Positions 1 to 39,280 of a stretch of 41,790 nt of DNA are shown one piece after another (within the stretch, counting starts at the first letter, position 1; every line of letters starts with the position of its first letter). The position numbers were made by a program, and so were the translations under genes. The notes beneath the pieces were generated by a model. That model was not told the DNA's origin. It saw only the letters and a list, made by a program, of their open reading frames with translations, and did no database searches. Source of the stretch: Octopus sinensis (lineage: Eukaryota); the NCBI RefSeq assembly GCF_006345805.1, contig NW_021835881.1, positions 1 through 41,790 on the forward strand. Direction: 5' to 3'.

Positions 1-2131
1 GTCCCCCCTCTTTTTCTTGGTACATATAGTTTGTCTGTGTCACTTATTGGGTGGAGTGTCCCACATCTAGTTAGTAAGTTCCTTGTCTTTCTGTCTAAGC
101 TGTTTAATTCGTCTACTGTCCATGCGATTACCCCTGCTCCATATCTAAGGAGTTAAACCGCCCAGATGTTGATAGCTTCGATCTTATTCCGTCCATTTAA
201 TTTCGACTTAACGATCAGTCTTAGTCTGAGCAAGCACTCCACCTTAAATTTTTCTGTCATTTCTTTCTCCATTAATTTATCCATTTCCAAAATCCCTAAG
301 CACTTATAGCCCGTCTCTTCTATCTGCTTCATAACCTTCCCCGACGGTATCGATACCCCGTCCATACATTTGATTTTTGCCTCTCTTCAAAACTAACACA
401 CCACACTGTCTCAGTCCGAACTCCATTCTGATATCAGCACTGAACGTATACACCGTATCAACGAGGAAACTGACATGGGCTTCATCCGTACCATAAAGTT
501 TGAGGTCATCCATGAATAACACTTTTTTCTGTTGGCTTTTGAATACATAACCAGCTTTTGCTTTCCTCAGAATCAGTGTTAGTGGTATCAAGCACAGTAC
601 AAAGATCAGTGGGGACAGGCAGTCCCCTTGGAAGATGTTCCTCCTAATTTCTACTGTCCCTAAGTTACTTCCAAGCAATCGCTCAACAATCGATGCAATA
701 CCAAATAGGTTCATACATACCTTTATCCAAGCGTGTGGGGTCATATCATACTCCTTATGATAGTCGATCCATGCCATGGCTAAGTTACTTTTCCTCTTCT
801 TGCAGTCTCTAAGTATAGTTTTGTCTATCAGGAGTTGATACTTGGTACCTCTGCACTTACGCTTGCAACCCTTCTGCTCTTGTGGCAGTACTCCATTTTT
901 TCCGATGTTCGTACATTGATTCTGCGAGTATTCCAGTCAATAATTTCTACATAAGTTGCAAACAGGATATCGGCCTGTATTTGTCTACCGTATTGCCTTT
1001 TTCGATATTTTTCAAGCACCGCACTGTCCTATCCAATGTCAAAACCACTCTGGTGTTACTTGGTCGGTATTTAACAAGCTGTTGAGTTGCGCAGCTATTC
1101 CTGCATGACATTCCCAAATCTTTTGATCCAGTAGCCCGGTCCCGGGGACTTCCAGTTGCTCATCTTTTTGCTGATTTCCTTCACTTCCCTAACTGAAATG
1201 ACTAGTTCTGCCTGTTTTGGACAGACTACTGTTTGTTTCAGTTCTTGCAACCATTCAGCATCCTTCTTGTGCTCTTTGTTTTTGCTCCAGATGTCACTCC
1301 AAAACCTTTGACTTTCATTGTTATCTGGTATCAACTTTTCATCTGTACACTCTCCATTTATTTCTTTATAGAATCTCTTCTGATCTAATCTGAATAACCT
1401 ATTCTGGTGATAACCCTTCATTCTTTGGTCGTATCTTATCATCTTTGCTTTCTTCGCAACGAGGCGCTGTTTCAGTTCCTCCACTACTACTTTCAGGCCC
1501 TTTCTTTCAATGTTATACTTCCTTTTCAGCGCCCTGTATTTTTGTTCGCTTTTAAGCTCCCCTTTCTCTTTTCGGTCTAACAGAAATTTCCTTCGAGAGA
1601 ATATCTAACCCTGTCTGTATTCTTCGTTTCCCCCATGGATCTTTTCTTTTGTCAATCCCATTATATTTCTTTTTCTTGACATCAACCCCCATGTTTTCTG
1701 CTATAACAATACTTGCTGCCTTGAACAAATTATTTGTTTCTCTGATGTTGTTTGTTCCGATGTATTTCAGAATATCATTGACAGTTTTGGTTTCTTGGTT
1801 CAATTTCCATCGATCAACATTTTTAAGGTTGCAAATAATGTCGCTATCGTTCTCTTGTAGTCTTACCTTTATTCTGTCGTAGATTGCCTTTTGTTCATCT
1901 GTCATGTCACCATTAGTTTTATTGTCTTCTTGTAGATCATCTATATGTCTCTCATCAAGTAAACTACCACTGCTCCTTTCCTGTGCTATGAAATTACTTT
2001 TATTAGTAAGAACTGTATTTTCATCGTTATCTCTGCTGCTATTTTCCAAGACCCATCTTTTGATAGCTTTGAGCTCTACTTCTGTGAACCAACGATTTTT
2101 TCTTATTGCTCTAACTTGATCACATAGTCTC
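1..2131 (-). mobile_element. Decayed R4/Dong-clade non-LTR retrotransposon (RT pseudo-ORF, frameshifted, runs off the window start)
   Basis: Consecutive minus-strand ORFs 1552-2133, 1095-1484, 304-777 and 153-365. RT motifs: [71 protein letters not shown]. These are typical of R4/Dong elements. Confidence 0.88.
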
Positions 2132-2145
2132 AACCACTACGCCAC

Positions 2146-4259: not shown

Positions 4260-4470
4260 GGTGCAAGTGTGGCTGTGCGTTAAGAAGCTTGCTTCACAGC
4301 CACATGGTCACACCTTCAGCAAATGCCTTCAACTGTAGCCTCGGGTTGACCAATGTCTTGTGAGTGGATTTGATAGACAGAAACTGAAAGAAACTCGTCC
4401 TATGTGTGTGCTTGTGTGCGTGCGTGTGTATTTGTCACCTCTCCACCGTTTGATATCCGGTGCTGGTGTT
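4260..4470 (+). mobile_element. tRNA-derived SINE, family B (diverged, partial)
   Basis: GTGGCTGTGCGTTAAGAAGCTTGC...TTGTGAGTGGATTTG...AAACTGAAAGAA; same family as the copy at 33144. Confidence 0.75.
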
Positions 4471-4569
4471 CCCGGACAAGTGAAATTTCTCAGAACAGAA
4501 TCATTTCTTTAAAGCATTGGATCTAGAAGTCTGATTGCCTCATTACCTAGAATTTCTTCTCATTTTCTT

Positions 4570-4945
4570 GGCGCAGGAGTGGCTGTGTGGTAAGTAGCTT
4601 GCTTACCAACCACATAGTTCCGGGTTTAGTCCCACTGCGTGGCACTTTGGGAAAATGTCTTCTAAAGAAGCCCGTCGCATATAATATATATATATATATA
4701 TATATACATATTGGTGTGTGTGTGTGTGTGTGTTTGTGTGTCTATGTTTGTGCCCCCAACATCGCTTGACAACGGATGCTGGTGTGTTTACGTCCCTGTA
4801 ACTTAGCGGTTCGGCAAAAAAGACCGATAGAATAAGTACTAGGCTTACAAAGTCCTGGAGTCGATTTGCTCGGCTAAAGGTGGTTCTCCAGCATGGCTGC
4901 AGTCAAATGACTGAAACAAGTAAAAGAGTAAAAGAGTAAAGAGAG
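4570..4945 (+). mobile_element. tRNA-derived SINE, family B (internal deletion, internal TA/GT microsatellite)
   Basis: Head GGCGCAGGAGTGGCTGTGTGGTAAGTAGC; 3' end CAGTCAAATGACTGAAACAAG(TAAAAGAG)n. Confidence 0.85.
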
Positions 4946-5099
4946 AGTGTTCTATTATCGGTTTCAGGTAGAGGATGTGGCCATGCTGGAGCATTGCAAT
5001 TAGAGCTAATTCTTGCTTATTTACAACTTATTTCCTGGTTTTATTTCCGGAACCTATCCTGGTGATGTAGTGATCCGCCTTTCTTTGTGTTTCGTGCTG

Positions 5100-5390
5100 T
5101 GATAGGAGTTCAGCTTATCTATCAGATGCACGTCAGGTGGCTTCACAAAAGGTATCTCGTTCATGAAACGTGGTTTCATCTGATTATTCTTCGAACACAT
5201 CCGTATATACACGTCGTACGTTTCTGAGATTGTTTGCCCGAATGTTGAAAAGATGCGAGCCTTTGAACCCTAAGCTGTTACAGTATTGGGTTCTTACACT
5301 GGACGAAGAGGGTATAATCTTCTGTACTATGCAGTGGCGTTCAGTTCGGTGACTGGTATAGTTGTGTACTAGATCCTCTAGGATCACACA
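5100..5390 (-). mobile_element. Decayed C-terminal fragment of a CR1/L2-group LINE ORF2 (second copy ~6760-7050)
   Basis: ILEDLVHN...RTERHCIV...RTQYCNSLGFKGSHLFNIRANNLR...DVF resembles the 'GPxLFNxLPxxLR...FK' C-terminal motif of CR1/L2-group ORF2. Confidence 0.6.
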
Positions 5391-5432
5391 AACTCACGCA
5401 CACACACGTGCGCATGCGCACTCATATACATA

Positions 5433-5805
5433 GGTGCAGGCCTGGCTGTGTGGTTAGAAGCTTGCCTCCCAACCACATGGTTTTGGGTTCAGTCTCACTG
5501 CGTGGGACCTTGGGCAAGTGTCTCCTATTATAGCCTCGATCCAACCAAAGCCTTGTGAGTGTATTTGGTAGATGGAAACTGAAAGAAGCCCGACATACAC
5601 ACACACACACACATACATATATATATATCTTTATGTTTGTACTTGCCACCCACCCCCAACGCTTGACAACTGGTAAATAAGCGCATCGGCAAAAAGGAAC
5701 CGACAGAATAAGTACTAGGCTTTAAAAAAATAAGTCATAGATCGATTTGTTCTACCAAGGTGATGCTACAGTATGGCCGCAGTCAAAAGACTGAAACAGG
5801 TAAAG
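5433..5805 (+). mobile_element. tRNA-derived SINE, family B (duplicated at ~7093-7472)
   Basis: TGGCTGTGTGG A-box, GGGTTCAGTC B-box, TTGGGCAAGTGTCT core, GCAGTCAAAAGACTGAAAC end. Confidence 0.85.
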
Positions 5806-7907
5806 GTAAGTGATAATATATATATACCTGCATTTTTTCGCGTCTTTTTTCAGTGAATAGCCCCTTCCAAGCGTCCGTCTGCTATAGAACTTTATTTAAT
5901 ATCTTGGAATACACATGTCAATGCGTTTTATAAGTTTTCTGTCAGGCTTCGGGTCAATCAAAGCCCTGGGGTTAAACAGGGAAGACAAAAAAAACGTTGT
6001 GAAAGGCTGTCGGATGGAATTTTACCCGTAATTGAAAAGTCCTGTTTTGTCACATGCACTCTGTGTTGCAATGATTCTGGCTATGAATACGAATCATGAT
6101 TGAGTCACGCGGCCATGTTAACATTACATGTTAATGCAAAACGTAGTTAATTCTCTTGATCAAACAGCTGAATAGTCATCGTCGAAATTGGTGGAGATCA
6201 ATTTGTACATAAACACACACACAACACACATAATCGTGTGTGTATATATATATATATATGTGTGGTGTGTGGTGTATATATATATATATATATATATTAT
6301 ATACATATATATATAACACACACACATATGTATATGCATATATATATATATAATATATATATATATACATATTGGTGTGTGTGTGTGTGTGTGTTTGTGT
6401 GTCTATGTTTGTGCCCCCAACATCGCTTGAAACGGATGCTGGTGTGTTTACGTCCCTGTAACTTAGCGGTTCGGCAAAAAAGACCGATAGAATAAGTACT
6501 AGGCTTACAAAGTCCTGGAGTCGATTTGCTCGGCTAAAGTGGTTCTCCAGCATGGCTGCAGTCAAATGACTGAAACAAGTAAAAGAGTAAAAGAGTAAAG
6601 AGAGAGTGTTCTATTATCGGTTTCAGGTAGAGGATGTGGCCATGCTGGAGCATTGCAATTAGAGCTAATTCTTGCTTATTTACAACTTATTTCCTGGTTT
6701 TATTTCCGGAACCTATCCTGGTGATGTAGTGATCCGCCTTTCTTTGTGTTTCGTGCTGTGATAGGAGTTCAGCTTATCTATCAGATGCCACGTCAGGTGG
6801 CTTCACAAAAGGTATCTCGTTCATGAAACGTGGTTTCATCTGATTATTCTTCGAACACATCCGTATATACACGTCGTACGTTTCTGAGATTGTTTGCCCG
6901 AATGTTGAAAAGATGCGAGCCTTTGAACCCTAAGCTGTTACAGTATTGGGTTCTTACACTGGACGAAGAGGGTATAATCTTCTGTACTATGCAGTGGCGT
7001 TCAGTTCGGTGACTGGTATAGTTGTGTACTAGATCCTCTAGGATCACACAAACTCACGCACACACACGTGCGCATGCGCACTCATATACATAGGTGCAGG
7101 CTGGCTGTGTGGTTAGAAGCTTGCCTCCCAACCACATGGTTTTGGGTTCAGTCTCACTGCGTGGGACCTTGGGCAAGTGTCTCCTATTATAGCCTCGATC
7201 CAACCAAAGCCTTGTGAGTGTATTTGGTAGATGGAAACTGAAAGAAAGAAGCCCGACATACACACACACACACACACATACATATATATATATCTTTATG
7301 TTTGTACTTGCCACCCACCCCCAACGCTTGACAACTGGTAAATAAGCGCATCGGCAAAAAGGAACCGACAGAATAAGTACTAGGCTTTAAAAAAATAAGT
7401 CATAGATCGATTTGTTCTACCAAGGTGATGCTACAGTATGGCCGCAGTCAAAAGACTGAAACAGGTAAAAGGTAAGTGATAATATATATATACCTGCATT
7501 TTTTCGCGTCTTTTTTCCAGTGAATAGCCCCTTCCAAGCGTCCGTCTGCTATAGAACTTTATTTAATATCTTGGAATACACATGTCAATGCGTCTTTATA
7601 AGTTTTCTGTCAGGCTTCGGGTCAATCAAAGCCCTGGGGTTAAACAGGGAAGACAAAAACGTTGTGAAAGGCTGTCGGATGGAATTTTACCCGTAATTGA
7701 AAAGTCCTGTTTTGTCACATGCACTCTGTGTTGCAATGATTCTGGCTATGAATACGAATCATGATTGAGTCACGCGGCCATGTTAACATTACATGTTAAT
7801 GCAAAACGTAGTTAATTCTCTTGATCAAACAGCTGAATAGTCATCGTCGAAATTGGTGGAGATCAATTTGTACATAAACACACACACAACACACATAATC
7901 GTGTGTG

Positions 7908-7973
<66 letters not shown>

Positions 7974-8102
7974 TATATAACACACACACATATGTATATG
8001 CATATATATATATATATAATTAGATGTGTATGTGTGTGTATATGTATATGGATATAAATTCATGCATTTATATATGTATATATGTATGTGCATATATACA
8101 TG

Positions 8103-14226: not shown

Positions 14227-14505
14227 ATATATATATATATATATATAAGTTTAACAATTAAGGATAATCTCTTAATAAGGGATTTTAACAAGAAATTATC
14301 GGGTAGCTAGCGTGAAAACCTCATAAAAGAAAAGAATTCGAAAATAATTTTTTTCTTTTGAACAAATTAATTATATCTATATTGTATAGAGGGCATTATT
14401 ACACATAAATGCCTCACACTAGGAGGGACAAAGTCATTACTACCAAAATTATACTAATCATACCCAAATGCAGTTTTTCAAAGCAAGACATTTAAAAATG
14501 AATTT

Positions 14506-14563
14506 AGTTCTGTATCACCGTGATTTCACATTCAACTTACGTCTAATTATCATCAGCAGAACT
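14506..14563 (-). ncRNA. Type I hammerhead ribozyme, array A copy 1
   Basis: AGUUCUG-CUGAUGA-stem II (one extra mismatch versus copies 2 and 3)-GAA-AUCAC(G)GUGAU-A-CAGAACU. Confidence 0.75.
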
Positions 14564-14983
14564 GATTCTGAACACATCATAAATAAACTACCAACCTTAC
14601 GTAGCGAAGACGAACAGACACTGCTCACTCCGGCCAAGCACATGGAACGTTTATAAATCATATATCCGGTAAATGGCGGGCTTTTTACGAACTGCATGTC
14701 GGTAATGAAAAGTATTTCGGAATAAGTTTAACAATTAAGGATAATCTCTTAATAAGGGATTTTAACAAGAAATTATCGGGTAGCTAGCGTGAAAACCTCA
14801 TAAAAGAAAAGAATTCGAAAATAATTTTTTTCTTTTGAACAATTAATTATATCTATATTGTATAGAGGGCATTATTACACATAAATGCCTCACACTAGGA
14901 GGAGGGACAAAGTCATTACTACCAAAATTATACTAATCATACCCAAATGCAGTTTTTCAAAGCAAGACATTTAAAATGAATTT

Positions 14984-15041
14984 AGTTCTGTATCACCGTG
15001 ATTTCACATTCAACTTACGTCTAATGATCATCAGCAGAACT
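14984..15041 (-). ncRNA. Type I hammerhead ribozyme, array A copy 2
   Basis: AGUUCUG-CUGAUGA-U-CAUU-A-GAC(GUAA)GUU-G-AAUG-U-GAA-AUCAC(G)GUGAU-A-CAGAACU. 7-bp stem I, AUA cleavage triplet. Confidence 0.85.
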
Positions 15042-15453
15042 GATTCTGAACACATCATAATAAACTACCAACCTTACGTAGCGAAGACGAACAGACAACT
15101 GCTCACTCCGGCCAAGCACATGGAACGTTTATAAATCATATATCCGGTAAATGGCGGGCTTTTTACGAACTGCATGTCGGTAATGAAAAGTATTTCGGAA
15201 TAAGTTTAACAATTAAGGATAATCTCTTAATAAGGGATTTTAACAAGAATTATCGCTAGCGTGAAAACCTCATAAAAGAAAAGAATTCGAAAATAATTTT
15301 TTTCTTTTGAACAATTAATTATATCTATATTGTATAGAGGGCATTATTACACATAAATGCCTCACACTAGGAGGGACAAAGTCATTACTACCAAAATTAT
15401 ACTAATCATACCCAAATGCAGTTTTTCAAAGCAAGACATTTAAAAATGAATTT

Positions 15454-15511
15454 AGTTCTGTATCACCGTGATTTCACATTCAACTTACGTCTAATGATCA
15501 TCAGCAGAACT
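15454..15511 (-). ncRNA. Type I hammerhead ribozyme, array A copy 3
   Basis: Same sequence as copy 2. Confidence 0.85.
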
Positions 15512-15589
15512 GATTCTGAACACATCATAAATAAACTACCAACCTTACGTAGCGAAGACGAACAGACAACTGCTCACTCCGGCCGTGTG

Positions 15590-17274: not shown

Positions 17275-18230
17275 GGAAAAATAAGTCAAGATAGAAAATG
17301 CTAAAGTTATTTTATAAAAAACATTTCAGTACCGGTTTCAGTAATTGAGACTTTTTCAATTGTAAGTATGGAAAATAATTAGAATTGGAAAAATTTAAAG
17401 AAAAGTTTTTTAAAAAAATATATGCTTAGTGTTCAAATACAAGTGGCATTTTCCTTGTTTCTGCCTATCTCTGTCTCTCTTGTTTATTCATGTGGATTCG
17501 AGGTCGTTGTGATTTATTGGTAGGGAAGAAGAAGAAGAAGAAGAAGAAGAAGAAGAAGAAGAAGAAGAAGAAGGAATGTAGGTAGTGTGAAAGTAGTAAG
17601 GTGTTAAATGTTCAAAATGACTTAAAATTGGCACGTTATGGATTATAGCAGTGATTGGAACTGTTTTTTCATGAATTCTTGGGAATCTCTTGAGCGTATC
17701 ATTATTAATATTTGCGTGTGTATTTGTGTTATTCTAAGGCCGTGGTGGATATGTCGTTTGTCGTAGACGCGTTCAAAAGGGGTCTGTATTTTGTAATAAA
17801 GAGAGTCTCTTTAATAATTCGTTGACTCCAGGTTGTATCGTTCCTGAATTGGTAGAGGGGAAAACTTCTAAAGCTTGGATTTTTGTTATTGGTGCAAATG
17901 TCTATGCTTGATTAGTTTTGATCCGAGTTCAAGGAGTCTTCGTTCACAAGTATAGGTGTCCGAAACTATGGAACAGATTCTTTTCGCTAGCTTACCAGGT
18001 ATATTAACGGTGTGGCATAAATTGAATAATAGGTATTGTTTTGAATCTGTGGGTTTATAGAAGACGTCTGTTTCGATGTGGTTATTGGCTATTTTAATTA
18101 GGATGTCAAGAAAAGGGAGTTGTTTATTGCTGTGCTCCATGGTGAATTGTATGTTGCTATTGATATTGTTGAGCATTATTTTGAAATCAAGTAGTTTGTC
18201 CATGCTATCTTTCTAAAGTATAAAGCAATA
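17275..18230 (-). mobile_element. Penelope-like retroelement fragment (RT C-terminus fused by deletion to the end of GIY-YIG, plus 3'UTR)
   Basis: ORF 17886-18203 NSNIQFTMEHSNKQLPFLDILI...TDVFYKPTDSKQYL.F..CH (PLE RT/thumb), then FPLYQF...QRIIKERLFITKYRPLLN. 3'UTR has (GAA)n and an HHR-like motif and ends in (TA)n. Confidence 0.88.
17327..17362 (-). ncRNA. Atypical hammerhead-like motif (UUGAAAA core) in PLE 3' end
   Basis: CAA-UUGAAAA-AGU(cucaauu)ACU-GAA-ACCGGU-A-CUG. Confidence 0.4.
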
Positions 18231-19602: not shown

Positions 19603-19657
<55 letters not shown>

Positions 19658-19820
19658 AAGTCAAATTGCGATAAAATAAAAATAATTATTATCGCTGGTA
19701 TTTCTAGCACAAGCCATATATTTTTCATATATCAGTACATTAAGGCGAAATATGTGCTAGGAACACAGAAGCTAGATAAATTTAGTGAAATGAAGATAAA
19801 AACATTTACTAACTCGGTTC

Positions 19821-19894
19821 CTCTTAGACTGCAGTTTCGTTCTTTTCATCAATAAAGATAAATTATTTGCTCAGGGAGAATTCATCGGTAAGAG
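19821..19894 (-). ncRNA. Type I hammerhead ribozyme, array B copy 1
   Basis: CUCUUA-CCGAUGA-long stem II (UUCU/AGAA...)-GAA-ACUGCAGU-C-UAAGAG; GUC triplet. Confidence 0.8.
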
Positions 19895-20217
19895 CCCTGT
19901 TGTTCTGAGATCCTAACTCACTAGAAGCATGTGCTTCTAATGATTTACTCTCTCTAACTAATCAGATCACTGCGCAGACTCCGAACGTCCCGACAAAACT
20001 AGGGATTTCTGGTATATCGTCTAGCGCTCAAAATTTATCGAGAAATATGTAAACAAGTCAAATTGCGATAAAATAAAAATAATTATTATCGCTGGTATTT
20101 CTAGCACAAGCCATATATTTTTCATATATCAGTACATTAAGGCGAAATATGTGCTAGGAACACAGAAGCTAGATAAATTTAGTGAAATGAAGATAAAAAC
20201 ATTTACTAACTCGGTTC

Positions 20218-20291
20218 CTCTTAGACTGCAGTTTCGTTCTTTTCAGCAATAAAGATAAATTATTTGCTCGGGGAGAATTCATCGGTAAGAG
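20218..20291 (-). ncRNA. Type I hammerhead ribozyme, array B copy 2
   Basis: As copy 1, with better distal stem II pairing (AGCA/UGCU, AUAA/UUAU). Confidence 0.82.
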
Positions 20292-20407
20292 CCCTGTTGT
20301 TCTGAGATCCTAACTCACTAGAAGCATGTGCTTCTAATGATTTACTCTCTCTAACTAATCAGATCACTGCGCAGACTCCGAACGTCCCGACAAAACTAGG
20401 GATTTCT

Positions 20408-21155
20408 ATTCTATAATTATGAACATAATTATAATCAGGAGTCAGCTAATTGCTTCACCAGGCACCGAATTTAGAAATGGTAGTTAAAATGACTTTTCTG
20501 CTACTATAAAGATCTCCCAGACAATAACAAACTTATTTACGTACAAAAAGAAAAAAAATTACGAATCCACACGACTTAGATTAGCTACATACGCGTTTCG
20601 AATTTGAAGTAAGGTAATATTTACTTACTTATTTCACCTCTTCAGTGCAGTATTTCAAGATATAAAGTTGTGAGTGTTAGAATTAAATATGTACGTGATC
20701 AAGCGTCATCGCATAACTGACATCCAACCAACACTTTCAAAAATATACAGCCGAACGTGAACACGTTTTCATCCTTAATACCCACGTGTGTGTTACGAGT
20801 AATCCTGCAGAAACTGCGATTTCTGATCAAGGAGTAAAATATATTTCAATAATAATAAAAGGCTTAATTAATAATTAATAATTTTACCGAGTAGTTCGGT
20901 ACCTTTTTTAGGTAAAATTATATTTTATAAATATAATTATAACCAGGGGTTAGCTAATTGCTTCACCGTGCACCGAATATAGAAATAGGAGTTAAAATGC
21001 CTTTTCTGCTACTGTAAAGATCTCCCAGACAATAACACTTATTTACGTAGGCAAAAAAAAAAAGCGAATCCACACGACTCAGATTAGCTACATACACGTT
21101 TCGAATTTGAAGTAAAGTAATATTTACAAACATATTTCACCCCTTCAGTGAAGCA
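20408..21155 (-). repeat. Retrozyme-like tandem array C: ~505-bp unit x ~1.5 (copies visibly diverged)
   Basis: ATAATTATAA.CAGG.GT.AGCTAATTGCTTCACC at 20425 and 20933; HHR motif repeated 503 bp apart. Confidence 0.85.
20585..20650 (-). ncRNA. Type I hammerhead ribozyme, array C copy 1 (decayed copy at 21088-21153)
   Basis: CUGCA-CUGAAGA-GG..UGAA.UAAG...CUUA.UUCA..UC-GAA-ACGCGU-A-UGUAG; GUA triplet. Copy 2 has CUGAAGG and ACGUGU. Confidence 0.8.
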
Positions 21156-21184
21156 TATACTAGCTTATACATCTCTATATATAA

Positions 21185-21541
21185 TAGGAGCACTCCGTCG
21201 GTTGCGACGATGAGGGTCCCAGCTGATACGATCAACAGAACAGCTTGCTCGTGATTATTAACGTGCAAGTGGCTGAGCACTCCACAGACACGTGTACCCT
21301 TAACGTAGTTCTCGGGGGGATTCAGCGTGACACAGAGTGTGACAAGAGAAACAGGAAGAAAGAGCGAGAGAAAGTTGTGGTGAAAGAGTACAGCAGGGTT
21401 CACCACCACCCCCTGCCGGAGCCTCGTGGAGCTTTAGGTGTTTTCGCTCAATAAACAGTCACAATGCCCGGTCTGGGAATCGAAACCGCGATCCTTCGAC
21501 CGCGAGTCCGCTGCCCTAACCACTGAGCCATTGCGCCTCCA
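21185..21541 (-). mobile_element. tRNA-derived SINE, family C, near full length with TSD
   Basis: Head GGAGGCGCAATGGCTCAGTGGTTAGG...GGTTTCGATTCCC; 12-bp TSD CTCTATATATAA (21173-21184 and 21542-21553). Confidence 0.88.
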
Positions 21542-22324
21542 CTCTATATATAAACCAGCTCAAAAGTTGCACTCTGTACGGGTTTTTACGCTGGCCACTG
21601 CATAGGACTATAAATAACATGACTATAATACGTCTATAATGATTATATGCCCCGGTAGAATTTGATCAGAGATTAAGGACGGATGAGAATTAATTCTGTA
21701 ATGCAGTCCCAAGTCGAATTCGAACTATTGGCCAATTTGTCCCAAAGTTCTTTTTCTCGTCGTAAAATTAATGAAGCGAATGAAATTTATTTCCCCCTTG
21801 ATCTCTGACGTCATCTGACAAACGCAAACCAAGATGGAGTGAATCAACCAAGGTTTATGTGCTTATAAATAGCAACTCAAATGCTTTTAAATCAGTGCTG
21901 GATGTTCAAGAACCAAATGAAAGGCATATTTTCGATCCCCGGATCATCCCGATTCCAAAAAGGTATAATATGTCTATGTAGTACAAATGTAGACTGAGAT
22001 ACAGGGGTTCCTAGACGAACAGCCAGAATCTTATACAGCATATTATAATGACCAATAGTTAAAGCGCATGTATCACAATTGAATAATTATGCATAATAAC
22101 TCTAATTTATTGAAATTTATTGAAAGCAAAAACTGAATCAAGTTACGAGAATAGAATTTTTTTATACAATCAACTGAAATTAAATGAAATATTTTCTTAT
22201 AGGAGTGCAACCTAGCACTGTGTTTTGGTTTGTGGTGTAGACATGTGTGGAATACAGAAAACGTTGACCAATGATAAAGATTATGAGGATGACGCTTTTT
22301 GGTTTGCTGTATACATGCAATATT

Positions 22325-29641: not shown

Positions 29642-29860
29642 TCAATATAGGGTAGCAAAAATTCAGCAGAAATTATTTTGCTACCAGCGGTCTAGTGAGA
29701 AAAAGGAAATAGTCAGAGACTATTTATAAATTCAACAGCAAATTAAGGAACGGCCATAATAGGCCGTTCAACCCACTAGAAATAACAGCCAAGGCTTCAA
29801 CCGCAAAATAGTAGTAATTCCGTAAATCAGGAGAAAATTAAAAAACCCTTACCCTGTATC

Positions 29861-29958: not shown

Positions 29959-30671
29959 AAGCCAGGAGGGAGAGATATTACACGAGGCAGCACCACTACC
30001 GCTTCGGCAATATCTAACCTAAAATTTTCAAAATCATCGTACTCTCGCGCGCCAATTTATCGGCAGCAAATATAAGCTGCCGATTCCATTTCGGAATTAA
30101 CAGAAAATTCATAATTAATCAATATAGGGTAGCAAAAATTTAGCAGAAATTATTTTGCTACCAGCGGTCTAGTGAGAAAAAGGAAATAGTCAGAAAAACT
30201 ATTTATAATTCAACAGCAAATTAAGGAACGGCCATAATAGGCCGTTCAACCCACTAGAAATAACAGCCAAGGCTTCAACCGCAAAATAGTAGTAATTCCG
30301 TAAATCAGGAGAAATAAAAAAAAACATTTACCCTGTATCACTTTATACAATGCATTGTTTTTAATTTCTAGTGGGTTGAACGGCCTATTATGGCCGTTCC
30401 TTAATTTGCTGTTGAATTTATAAATAGTCTCTGACTATTTCCTTTTTCTCACTAGACCGCTGGTAGCAAAATAATTTCTGCTGAATTTTTTGCTACCCTA
30501 TATTGATTAATTATGAATTTTCTGTTTAATTCCGAAATGGAATCGGCAGCTTATATTTGCTGCCGATAAATTGGCGCGAGTACGATGATTTTGAAAATTT
30601 TAGGTTAGATATTGCCGAAGCGGTAGTGGTTTGTCTCGTGTCTCTCGTAATATATCTCTCCCTCCTGGCTT

Positions 30672-33611: not shown

Positions 33612-34500
33612 ACAAAGAAGCCTTCACCATCATCACCCAGAATTTACCAATACTTCATAAGGGCCCCAAATTAAAGGAAATTCTAAAAAATACACCAAAT
33701 CATTAAAAGCTACAAACAACCTAAATCACTTAAAAAGATTCTCACAAAGGCAAAATTGTTTTCTGAAATTACGGATGCAAAAGTAAAAAAATGTGGTAGA
33801 TCGAACTGTGCAACATGTCCAAACCTGCTAGAAGGATCAGAATTCCTCTTTAAAGAGGGACAGAAATTCAAGATCAAATCTAACTTTACTTATGCCTCTG
33901 AAAACATAATTTATGTCATAAAATGCTCGGGCTACCACCAAGACTACGTGGGATCCACGGGACTATCACTCAGACGTAGATGCACACTGCATCGACAATA
34001 GATTGCATTCCCAGAATACAGAATGATACCTTTTAGTGAGCACATTGAGAAATGCGCAAAGCAACTACTACCACAATTTTTAATCTTTCCATTTTACCAA
34101 TGTGCTATCTGATCATCAACACAAATCAGACTAAACAAGGAAACATTCTTCATTGAAAAGTACAAGCCCAGACTTAACCATTCCAACATACTGATACAGA
34201 GAAATTCACACCAAGGGAAAGGCAAAAAATTTTAAGCGATTATCTCCCTTATACCGGAAGAAATCACTCATTACCTCCCCTTATTTAGAACTCTTTTAAA
34301 CATAAACATAACGATAACTCTGTTCAACATAAACTTAACGTCGTAAGAAATTTGAAAAGCTAAACGCGAAACCGGTCTTTCTTCTAAATTATGTCATTGT
34401 AAGAGAAAAGATTTTTTAATATTCTTCAGATATTGACTCAAATATATATATTTTTAACCTTTAAGCCTTCTGTAGTTTTTTCACTTTTTACTATTTTCTG
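33612..34500 (+). mobile_element. Penelope-like element 3' part (Neptune-like Cys linker plus GIY-YIG endonuclease, disabled)
   Basis: IIKSYKQPKSLKKILTKAK...CGRSNCATC...SENIIYVIKCSGYHQDYVGSTGLSLRRRCTLHRQ*...FSEHIEKC...FPFYQ...KETFFIEKYKPRLN; (TA)n on both sides. Confidence 0.9.
34345..34383 (+). ncRNA. Atypical hammerhead-like motif (UUGAAAA core) in PLE 3' end
   Basis: AAGAAA-U-UUGAAAA-GC(uaaac)GC-GAA-ACCGGU-C-UUUCUU; 6-bp stem I, GUC triplet. Confidence 0.5.
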
Positions 34501-34524
34501 TATATATATATATAATTATATATA

Positions 34525-37863: not shown

Positions 37864-38004
37864 CACCACCACCACGACTACTTCTACAGAAGGTGTAATC
37901 CATAATCAGGGGAAATATTGATGGTCAACATCGACAACAATTAACTAATAGAGGAGTTCTTAGAAAACTTTAATAAATTCAACTGAACAAAAAGGACTGA
38001 AGAA

Positions 38005-38038
38005 TCTAACGTTTCGGGATTTTACCCTTCATCAGAGA
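38005..38038 (-). ncRNA. Minimal type I hammerhead ribozyme with canonical core
   Basis: UCU-CUGAUGA-A-GGG(uaaaau)CCC-GAA-ACGU-U-AGA. Confidence 0.7.
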
Positions 38039-38909
38039 ATGAAGCAAGTTGGGAAAGTTGTTATATGCATTACTATTCTTACAGATACTGTCTTTATCAA
38101 TAAGAATAAGTCTAGTTAGAAATGTGTCAAATTAATTTAGCGTTGGCTCTTGAGAAGTTGCTTATTATATTTCATCCATCCTTTCTCGACAAAGTTGCAT
38201 GAACGTAATGTAATCTGCGACTCCTTGCAGAGTGATAGAAGCATTGTCGATGTATATGGTGTATCTTGAGTATTTTTAACCTGGCGGATCCCAATCCACA
38301 GCTGGTCTAACCATAACGAACTTCTTATAGAGACAGAAGGGGAGAGGAGTCAGAGAGCAGGATCTATTTCTGTACTGGATTGGTTTTTGGAGTTACTGGC
38401 GCTGAGATGCCGAAAGGCAAAATTGACATCAGCGGGATTTGAACTAGAACGAATAACGCGGGGTCATTCGAGCCAATACTCTAACTAAGTCTGCCTATTC
38501 GCCGCTCACATTACATTGCACGTACAAGGAACAGAAGAGTATTTATGCAATTGTTAAGATGGAAAGAGTTACCCGTTTACCTTCAAACCAAATTATACCA
38601 TCATAAAACAATGCATGATTACATTAAGTAATGATCTCTTCAATATGAGTCTATATAGACTCATATAGCCTCACGGGGCTGGTTTCTCGGTTTCCAGGGC
38701 ATATAACTTTCCCCACTTGGACGGGACGCCGGTCCGTCACAAGATTACGGAGCAACATGAAATCATGTGTTTTTCTCAAGAACACAATGCATTGTCCGGT
38801 CCAAGAATCAAAACTACAATCTTATTATGATGAGTCCAACACCTTAACCATTAAGCCAGACGCCACCATGTTTTAGATATAGTTCGAGTTACACAATGCT
38901 TTTGAAAAA

Positions 38910-39280
38910 TAAGATCAAGATGGTCGTAGATGGATTGTCTTTCGCCAGAGTTCTTCTCGACTGAGGCTGAGCAGAGCGATAAACAACAATCATTTGATTG
39001 GTCATAGATGAATTGTCTTTGATCGTAGTTCTGCTTGATACAAGGCTGAATGGAAGTCAAAGATCAACTTGGTTGGTTAAAGATGGAATTGCCTTTGATC
39101 AGGGGTCGGACAAGAGCTAAAAATCAACTTGATGGTCATTGATGAATTGTCTTTGGTTGGAGTTATGCTCGATCAGGGATTGTACAGGAGCTAAACACCA
39201 ACTTGATCACAAATGAATTGAATTTGATTACAGTTCTGCTCGACCAGGGGTTGAACAGGAGCTAAAAAAAAAACAACCTG
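38910..39280. repeat. Degenerate ~55-75-bp minisatellite, ~5 units
   Basis: Recurring TGGTCATAGATGAATTGTCTTTGATC..AGTTCTGCTCGA.CAGGG.TGAACAGGAGCTAAA...CAACTTGA. Confidence 0.75.

Follow-up and report, generated by a model that had tools for sequence, protein, structure and literature searches.

A decayed hammerhead-bearing tandem repeat in the octopus genome is probably an old insertion of a non-LTR retrozyme

We analyzed a 41,790-nucleotide stretch of octopus DNA (the window) that contains several tandem repeats with hammerhead ribozyme motifs. One of these, which we call array C, is a hammerhead-bearing non-coding repeat at 20407-21156 on the minus strand. Its sequence features make it probable that array C is an old and likely inactive insertion of an animal non-LTR retrozyme, for which the enzymes of Penelope-like elements (PLEs) would have served as the copier at an AT-rich site. 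We regard it as a new, decayed member of the known animal non-LTR retrozymes, which are non-autonomous Penelope-like derivatives. The repeat is decayed, and its class has been described before. Its value is limited; it probably extends the non-LTR retrozymes to the octopus genome. Three unrelated hammerhead families, whose copy divergences cover two orders of magnitude, lie within a few kilobases of Penelope relics, and this arrangement fits the proposed PLE-retrozyme partnership.

Array C consists of about 1.47 tandem copies with a period of 508 bp, and every one of its motifs is on the minus strand, an orientation that the sequence-only reading had not given. That reading had described a repeat of about 505 bp; the tandem arrangement was found and the length was slightly off. 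The period exceeds the longest that TRF considers (500), which is why that program was silent on array C. The upstream copy (20864-21156; 293 nt) is truncated at its 5' end and, in the register that we infer, starts 2 nt before helix I of the hammerhead. The downstream copy (20407-20863; 457 nt) is nearly full length, is without the last approximately 70 nt of the family monomer, and ends at the junction with a second repeat, array B. Comparison with related contigs placed the beginning of family sequence at 20407. Alignment of 20417-20653 with 20925-21156 gave 87% identity between copies (206/237, with 5 gap positions), and the 25 substitutions in 232 aligned columns were 15 transitions and 10 transversions. 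The unit junction (20902-20924) is shorter than in most relatives by about 11 and 12 nt, as judged from contig joints, and these two short deletions explain a period of 508 here compared to approximately 530 (about 520-533) in the family.

The unit has a GC content of 32%, below the retrozyme limit of 45-50%. There was no open reading frame in array C, the longest stop-free frame being 57 codons, and a comparison with 21 PLE proteins gave a best tblastn E value of 0.071. ARAGORN detected no tRNA genes in the whole window, and no tRNA-derived head was found for array C. No target-site duplication was visible around the array, whose flanking sequence at insertion is now hidden by array B and a SINE. 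The latter is a SINE-like insertion at 21185-21541 (minus strand), 16 nt from the 5' end of array C and flanked by a 12-bp target duplication (21173-21184 and 21542-21553), and is putatively an octopus tRNA-derived SINE. A continuation of array C beyond it was not found (p = 0.91 and 0.10).

Copy 1 of the hammerhead, at 20584-20651 (minus strand), is of type I and has a complete core. Helix I has 5 bp, including one G-U pair (5' arm CUGCA, 20650-20646; 3' arm UGUAG, 20589-20585), and the core consists of CUGAAGA (20645-20639) and GAAA (20599-20596) with one bulged base. Helix III is a palindrome of the dimer type, ACGCGU (20596-20591), and the GUA site predicts cleavage between 20590 and 20589. 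CUGAAGA, helix I with its G-U pair, the ACGCGU helix III and the GUA site had been named from the letters alone, and all are present. Three traits of PLE-type hammerheads are also present: a bulged base at 9/10.1, a G10.1-C11.1 pair and the palindromic helix III. Outside the core, copy 1 is not intact. The helix II region is 39 nt long, with a weak proximal part and a distal hairpin; the proximal part has a single G-C pair followed by mismatches, and is worth -1.4 to -1.7 kcal/mol when forced. This weakened helix II, which the sequence-only reading had missed, is common to copies 1 and 2, and copy 1 is missing the outer G-C pair of helix I that is found in relatives.

Copy 2 of the hammerhead (21087-21154, minus strand; offset +503) is damaged, in agreement with the lesions and many substitutions that the sequence-only reading had attributed to it. 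Its core reads CUGAAGG (A9G), helix I contains a U-U mismatch, and the palindrome has become ACGUGU. The cleavage site and the 3' arm of helix I are intact, and ACGUGU still pairs, by way of U-G, in a helix III formed between the copies (6 of 6 pairs). Changes at A9 reduce hammerhead activity. The locus is probably inactive, judging from these lesions, which deprive it of the two complete hammerheads that define an active retrozyme dimer. The core of copy 1 could face the intact site of copy 2, and a dimer would then be cut at one site at most; with the core of copy 2 damaged, no monomer would be released from the locus. A forced double-hammerhead fold of the locus RNA was 17.7 kcal/mol above the free fold. 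The 81-nt hammerhead region folded like its shuffles (z = 0.1), with helix I present in the minimum-energy structure. Circular self-pairing was indistinguishable from shuffles for array C (z = 0.04), compared to z = -5.0 for array A (described below) and -1.5 for array B (40 shuffles each); decay may be the source of the missing self-pairing. The hammerhead had been expected to be better conserved than the rest of the unit, and at the locus it was not: 4 of 29 hammerhead positions differed between copies versus 21 of 203 elsewhere (Fisher p = 0.53), as expected of a dead copy.

Array C belongs to a dispersed family. We aligned public contigs from four of 24 listed runs, three of DNA (X1, X3 and X12, under the three organism labels A, B and D) and one presumed to be RNA (X23), to one unit (20380-20935), requiring at least 80% likeness. 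There were 1047, 893 and 1003 related contigs in the DNA runs, respectively, and 69 in X23. In X1, 15 contigs had at least 99% identity, 238 had 95-99%, 461 had 90-95% and 333 were below 90%; X3 and X12 were similar, and most contigs were below 95%. None of the 69 contigs in X23 reached 99% identity, and that run has no bearing on the array C locus. The dominant alternative bases were identical in all three DNA runs, which suggests that the family spread before these organisms split. Exact patterns of the unit had no matches in metagenome contigs or viral contigs.

The contigs also indicated how the unit is joined elsewhere. Among the 12 back-joints listed, of 23 with letters between, 10 led from 20894-20923 back to 20406/7 and gave monomers of 512-533 nt (528-533 nt in 7 of the 10). 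We rejected these joints as sole proof of a tandem arrangement, since the junction is internal if the natural end is near 20864. Thirteen X1 contigs carried unit-like sequence across 20866, so that at other loci the unit closes head-to-tail. In each DNA run, 33-34 contigs ran on past 20407 into family sequence.

Relatives of array C appear to have a better-paired hammerhead, in which helix I has 6 bp, helix II has 4 bp, a base is bulged at 9/10.1 and helix III is palindromic. Canonical helix sizes are thus combined with the PLE signature (PMC4209133). The family base at 20651 restores the outer pair of helix I, giving 6 bp (2106 of 2553 depth in X1; X3 and X12 similar). Variants in the 3' arm of helix II were found at 20602, 20603, 20606, 20613 and 20616 among the 40 variant rows listed of 143. 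One loose end in X12, formed by nine contigs (agreement 0.95), keeps both CUGAAGA and the arm of helix I intact; next come a bulged U and then GGGA. UCUC, the majority sequence of the 3' arm (20602/20603), pairs with GGGA, and a six-contig loose end in X1 reads UCCC; the pairing was assessed by eye and the two arms of helix II come from different contigs. For the duplicated stretch, 24 variant rows were listed, of which three were dropped as exclusive, or almost so, to the presumed RNA run. Among the 21 rows examined, copy 2 had the family base at nine, both copies shared a non-family base at eight, and four had gaps or third bases. Four of the eight shared differences are in helix II. The shared non-family bases indicate that the source was already somewhat diverged, helix II included, and that each copy decayed later. 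CpG decay was considered as the main source of differences and rejected, as a family CpG was lost here at 4 of 37 rows and the opposite direction was seen at 3.

We used summed contig depth, which is not copy number, to compare regions of the unit. Within the interior, the half of the hammerhead with the cleavage site (the 3' half) ranked first, first and second of 19 bins in the three DNA runs, at 2.1-4.5 times the median; the 5' half was at 0.5-1.0 times the interior median. A much larger excess was found in a module of approximately 115 nt at the 3' end, where bins 20418-20455 and 20874-20892 had 11-31 times the interior median depth. Part 1 of this module (20864-20901, minus strand) contains a perfect 6-bp inverted repeat (20885-20901) and, beyond it, an AT-rich stretch of about 20 nt, and includes the deepest bin in two of the three DNA runs. 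Part 2 (20407-20460, minus strand) recurs at 20925-20968 and had 14-24 times the interior median. Depth dropped steeply below 20855, to 0.1-0.3 times the interior median at 20817-20854. At 20864, 21, 17 and 11 contigs in the three DNA runs left the unit into AT-rich flanks that agreed poorly with one another. These patterns hint at a natural family 3' end near 20864 and at frequent 5' truncation.

A hairpin followed by approximately 18-20 AT-rich bases was found at the minus-strand 3' ends of array A (14245-14300), array B (19650-19705) and array C (20860-20910), with fold z scores of -5.1, -2.1 and -1.5 (weak), respectively. The end of one PLE fragment, at 34445-34502, had no hairpin (z = 0.1). 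The second PLE fragment, like arrays A and B, terminates in (TA)n; in the two arrays the hairpin stands 18-19 nt from that end. The excess of the 3' module may mark a signal recognized by reverse transcriptase (RT), or may be merely the usual bias of 5' truncation. It is a speculative idea, and one that we consider improbable, that the module with its hairpin is a cis signal for the Penelope RT and that cephalopod retrozyme families of very different ages converged on one end structure. If it were true, the module would give a direct view of the way in which Penelope enzymes are hijacked by retrozymes, and with the module as an RT-recognition signal the claim that PLE enzymes mobilize retrozymes would become directly testable.

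Array C is the oldest of the three hammerhead arrays, in support of the earlier view of it as an older insertion. The Jukes-Cantor distance between copies was 0.116 for array C, compared to 0.0083 in array B and approximately 0.0012 in array A, a 14-fold difference between C and B. With an octopus substitution rate of 0.0036 per My (PMC13282606), array C would be approximately 16 My old (10-25), array B about 1 and array A less than 1, if copies were identical at insertion. Array B (19648-20407, minus strand; 397-bp unit, 1.9 copies, 99% identical) is hammerhead-like, and its order of arrival relative to C is inferred. Its 5' end is joined to the cut end of array C at 20407 and its 3' end is within (TA)n, so that array B is most simply the later arrival. 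The occurrence of the same family variants under three organism labels is also in keeping with an old insertion. Array B matched the Rfam Hammerhead_1 model at 29.3 bits, below the gathering score of 34; its helix III is palindromic and its 5' core atypical. There were no other Rfam hammerheads in the window. Array A (14245-15584, minus strand) has 2.8 copies of a unit of approximately 478 bp, with near-zero substitutions between copies; the unit carries a canonical type I hammerhead, and the array is the window's best candidate for an active retrozyme. Arrays A, B and C had no detectable similarity, the best local scores not exceeding shuffle maxima, and we therefore treat them as separate families. 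The proposal that the system has been active over a long period thus holds for hammerhead repeats as a class and fails for a single system.

The window also contains Penelope relics. PLE fragments were detected at 18227-17771 and 33617-34178, with tblastn E values down to 1e-31 and 3e-48, and two of the proteins that they matched carry Pfam RVT_1 and GIY-YIG domains. Two of the 20 protein matches were from Octopus bimaculoides (51% identity) and four were from Mytilus (62-68%). The fragment at 17771-18227 (minus strand) is internally deleted, with the C-terminal part of the RT fused to the extreme C-terminus of the endonuclease. The element at 33617-34500 (plus strand) is 5'-truncated, retains the GIY-YIG end and a degenerate compact hammerhead at approximately 34345-34385, and has (TA)n on both sides. 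The nearest fragment is 2.2 kb from array C, beyond array B and microsatellites. No autonomous partner for array C was found; the 3' regions of the PLE fragments are dissimilar to it, and their compact hammerheads are unrelated to that of array C. Array C was compared with arrays A and B, with a 71-bp repeat and with the 3' region of each PLE fragment. No score exceeded the shuffle maximum, and the lowest p values (0.02-0.05), among 14 tests with 100 shuffles each, were rejected.

Several other features were observed. A solitary compact PLE-type hammerhead at 37990-38042 (minus strand), with CUGAUGA, a bulged A, a short helix II, a minimal helix III and UU at the cleavage site, is probably a relic of a PLE pseudo-LTR (pLTR). 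The 71-bp repeat is a tandem unit at 39100-39268 with 2.3 copies and 77% matches. An inverted repeat of 139 nt (29657-29795 and 30352-30490; 96% complementary, 556 nt apart) adjoins (TA)n and is either MITE-like or an inverted PLE-type structure. At 304-2136 (minus strand) there is a broken LINE open reading frame; it includes an RT domain (E = 2.7e-9 to Pfam RVT_1), and its best relatives are 47-58% identical. A near-identical tandem duplication of roughly 1660 bp, at approximately 4300-8000, contains SINE-like and microsatellite sequence and could be recent or an assembly artefact.

Three other explanations of array C were weighed against an old retrozyme insertion. The most serious, which we consider unlikely though well within reason, is that the unit is the pLTR or UTR of an autonomous PLE and that the locus is a partial tandem of that element, with heavy 5' truncation or an internal deletion, and not part of an independent retrozyme family. 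PLEs are described as having a truncated copy ahead of a fuller one, targets in AT microsatellites and a pLTR hammerhead (Craig et al. 2021, 10.1101/2021.04.23.441226), the bulged base at 9/10.1 is a PLE signature, and the steep 3'-terminal depth excess fits mass 5' truncation. PLEs are abundant, amounting to 6.83% of the O. vulgaris genome (PMC13282606). Against this explanation, the unit has neither an open reading frame nor a remnant of one, contigs span both junctions and close a unit of approximately 530 nt, and among the 24 loose ends listed (of 503) none clearly switches in mid-unit to foreign sequence. Also against it are the compact, unrelated hammerheads that the PLEs in the window carry in their 3' regions. 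The two readings overlap, because retrozymes have been proposed to be PLE pLTR derivatives (Li, Clavereau & Pollet 2026 preprint, 10.64898/2026.07.22.740005).

We give a smaller chance, and consider it rather remote, to a SINE- or satellite-like family that is mobilized through its 3' module and in which the hammerhead is a vestige of a PLE. The depth of the module (11-31 times that of the interior) compared to at most 4.5 times for the hammerhead points in this direction, as do the helix II already weak in both copies before they diverged (4 of the 8 shared non-family differences) and the lack of circular self-pairing. Naiad PLEs, moreover, are described as having spread without hammerheads (10.1101/2021.04.23.441226). 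The relatives, however, retain the core and have compensating pairs in helices I and II, the cleavage-site half of the hammerhead stands at an interior depth peak in all three DNA runs, and ARAGORN gave no tRNA gene. By far the least probable is a chance hammerhead-like string in a local DNA duplication. Rfam matched no hammerhead among its seven hits to array C at E ≤ 10, probably owing to the long helix II, and the motif folds no better than its shuffles. A descriptor written post hoc (core, closing G-C, palindromic helix III and a helix I of at least 4 bp) nevertheless matched none of 20,000 dinucleotide-shuffled units and averaged 0.0 matches in 300 shuffles of the whole window, compared to two matches in the real window, at copy 1 and at 38035. 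Together with a multi-copy family whose relatives are better paired, and with the further hammerhead repeats and PLE relics in the window, this largely refutes chance.

For the retrozyme insertion that we favor, the following history can be proposed. In tandem transcripts of the ancestral family, double hammerheads would form by way of the palindromic helix III, and cutting at GUA would yield monomers of approximately 530 nt, which might circularize. A Penelope RT-endonuclease would nick (TA)n or other AT-rich DNA and prime at the 3' module of the RNA, and copying would then run beyond a single unit length, so that a near-full copy is preceded by one truncated at its 5' end. The inserted array would have decayed neutrally, by about 6% per copy, with loss of the core in copy 2, and the insertion of array B would later have cut it.

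In the literature searched, as distinct from repeat libraries, we found no description of a cephalopod retrozyme or of the array C sequence, and five 15-16-mers of the unit had no match. Penelope elements are reported to have expanded in coleoids, in a source whose available part does not mention ribozymes (PMC8967140); neither does the available part of a 2026 repeat annotation (PMC13282606). The sequence-only reading had judged the unit longer than known retrozymes. This is so relative to the 150-450 bp given for animal non-LTR retrozymes in 2020 (Cervera & de la Pena 2020, PMC7229834), and not so relative to the consensus lengths of 51-972 bp in the 2026 preprint (10.64898/2026.07.22.740005), so that on published lengths array C does not appear exceptional. 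In that preprint cleavage was reported in one of nine predicted retrozyme dimers tested and in none of the other eight, which indicates that predicted motifs are often inactive.

Among known systems, the satellite-2 hammerheads of newt and axolotl (HHR_Amex1 and HHR_Amex2) resemble that of array C in a weak helix III that requires a dimer, and a U-U mismatch is present, too, at the base of helix II in HHR_Amex2 (PMC7229834). Their 330-350-bp units have been shown to be transcribed and to occur as circles; the units of the array C family are of approximately 530 bp, and their transcripts and circles are putative. PLE pLTR hammerheads have a bulged base between 9 and 10.1 and a G10.1-C11.1 pair (Cervera & de la Pena 2014, PMC4209133), both of which array C shares, along with the palindromic helix III. 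PLE traits also include partial tandems, 5' truncation, a microsatellite bias and a hammerhead in the pLTR (10.1101/2021.04.23.441226), and array C would fit this pattern of 5'-truncated partial tandems with microsatellite-adjacent ends if its 3' end is near 20864. It differs from PLE pLTRs in having no linked RT/GIY-YIG open reading frame, and minimal PLE hammerheads have a helix I of 4-5 bp, compared to 6 bp in the relatives of array C. The canonical type I hammerhead is described as having 6 bp in helix I, 4 bp in helix II and a helix III that is short and palindromic (PMC4209133). Animal non-LTR retrozymes are described as low-GC tandem units with a type I hammerhead, and their circular RNAs as highly self-paired (PMC7229834). 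Array C departs from them in its long, extended helix II, in a decayed copy that is not self-paired as a circle, and in lacking the two consecutive complete hammerheads by which the preprint defines an 'active' retrozyme. It is like them in being a non-coding, low-GC tandem unit some hundreds of base pairs long, with a single type I hammerhead in each unit and a helix III that is short and palindromic, in having no LTR, and in belonging to a dispersed family that co-occurs with PLEs.
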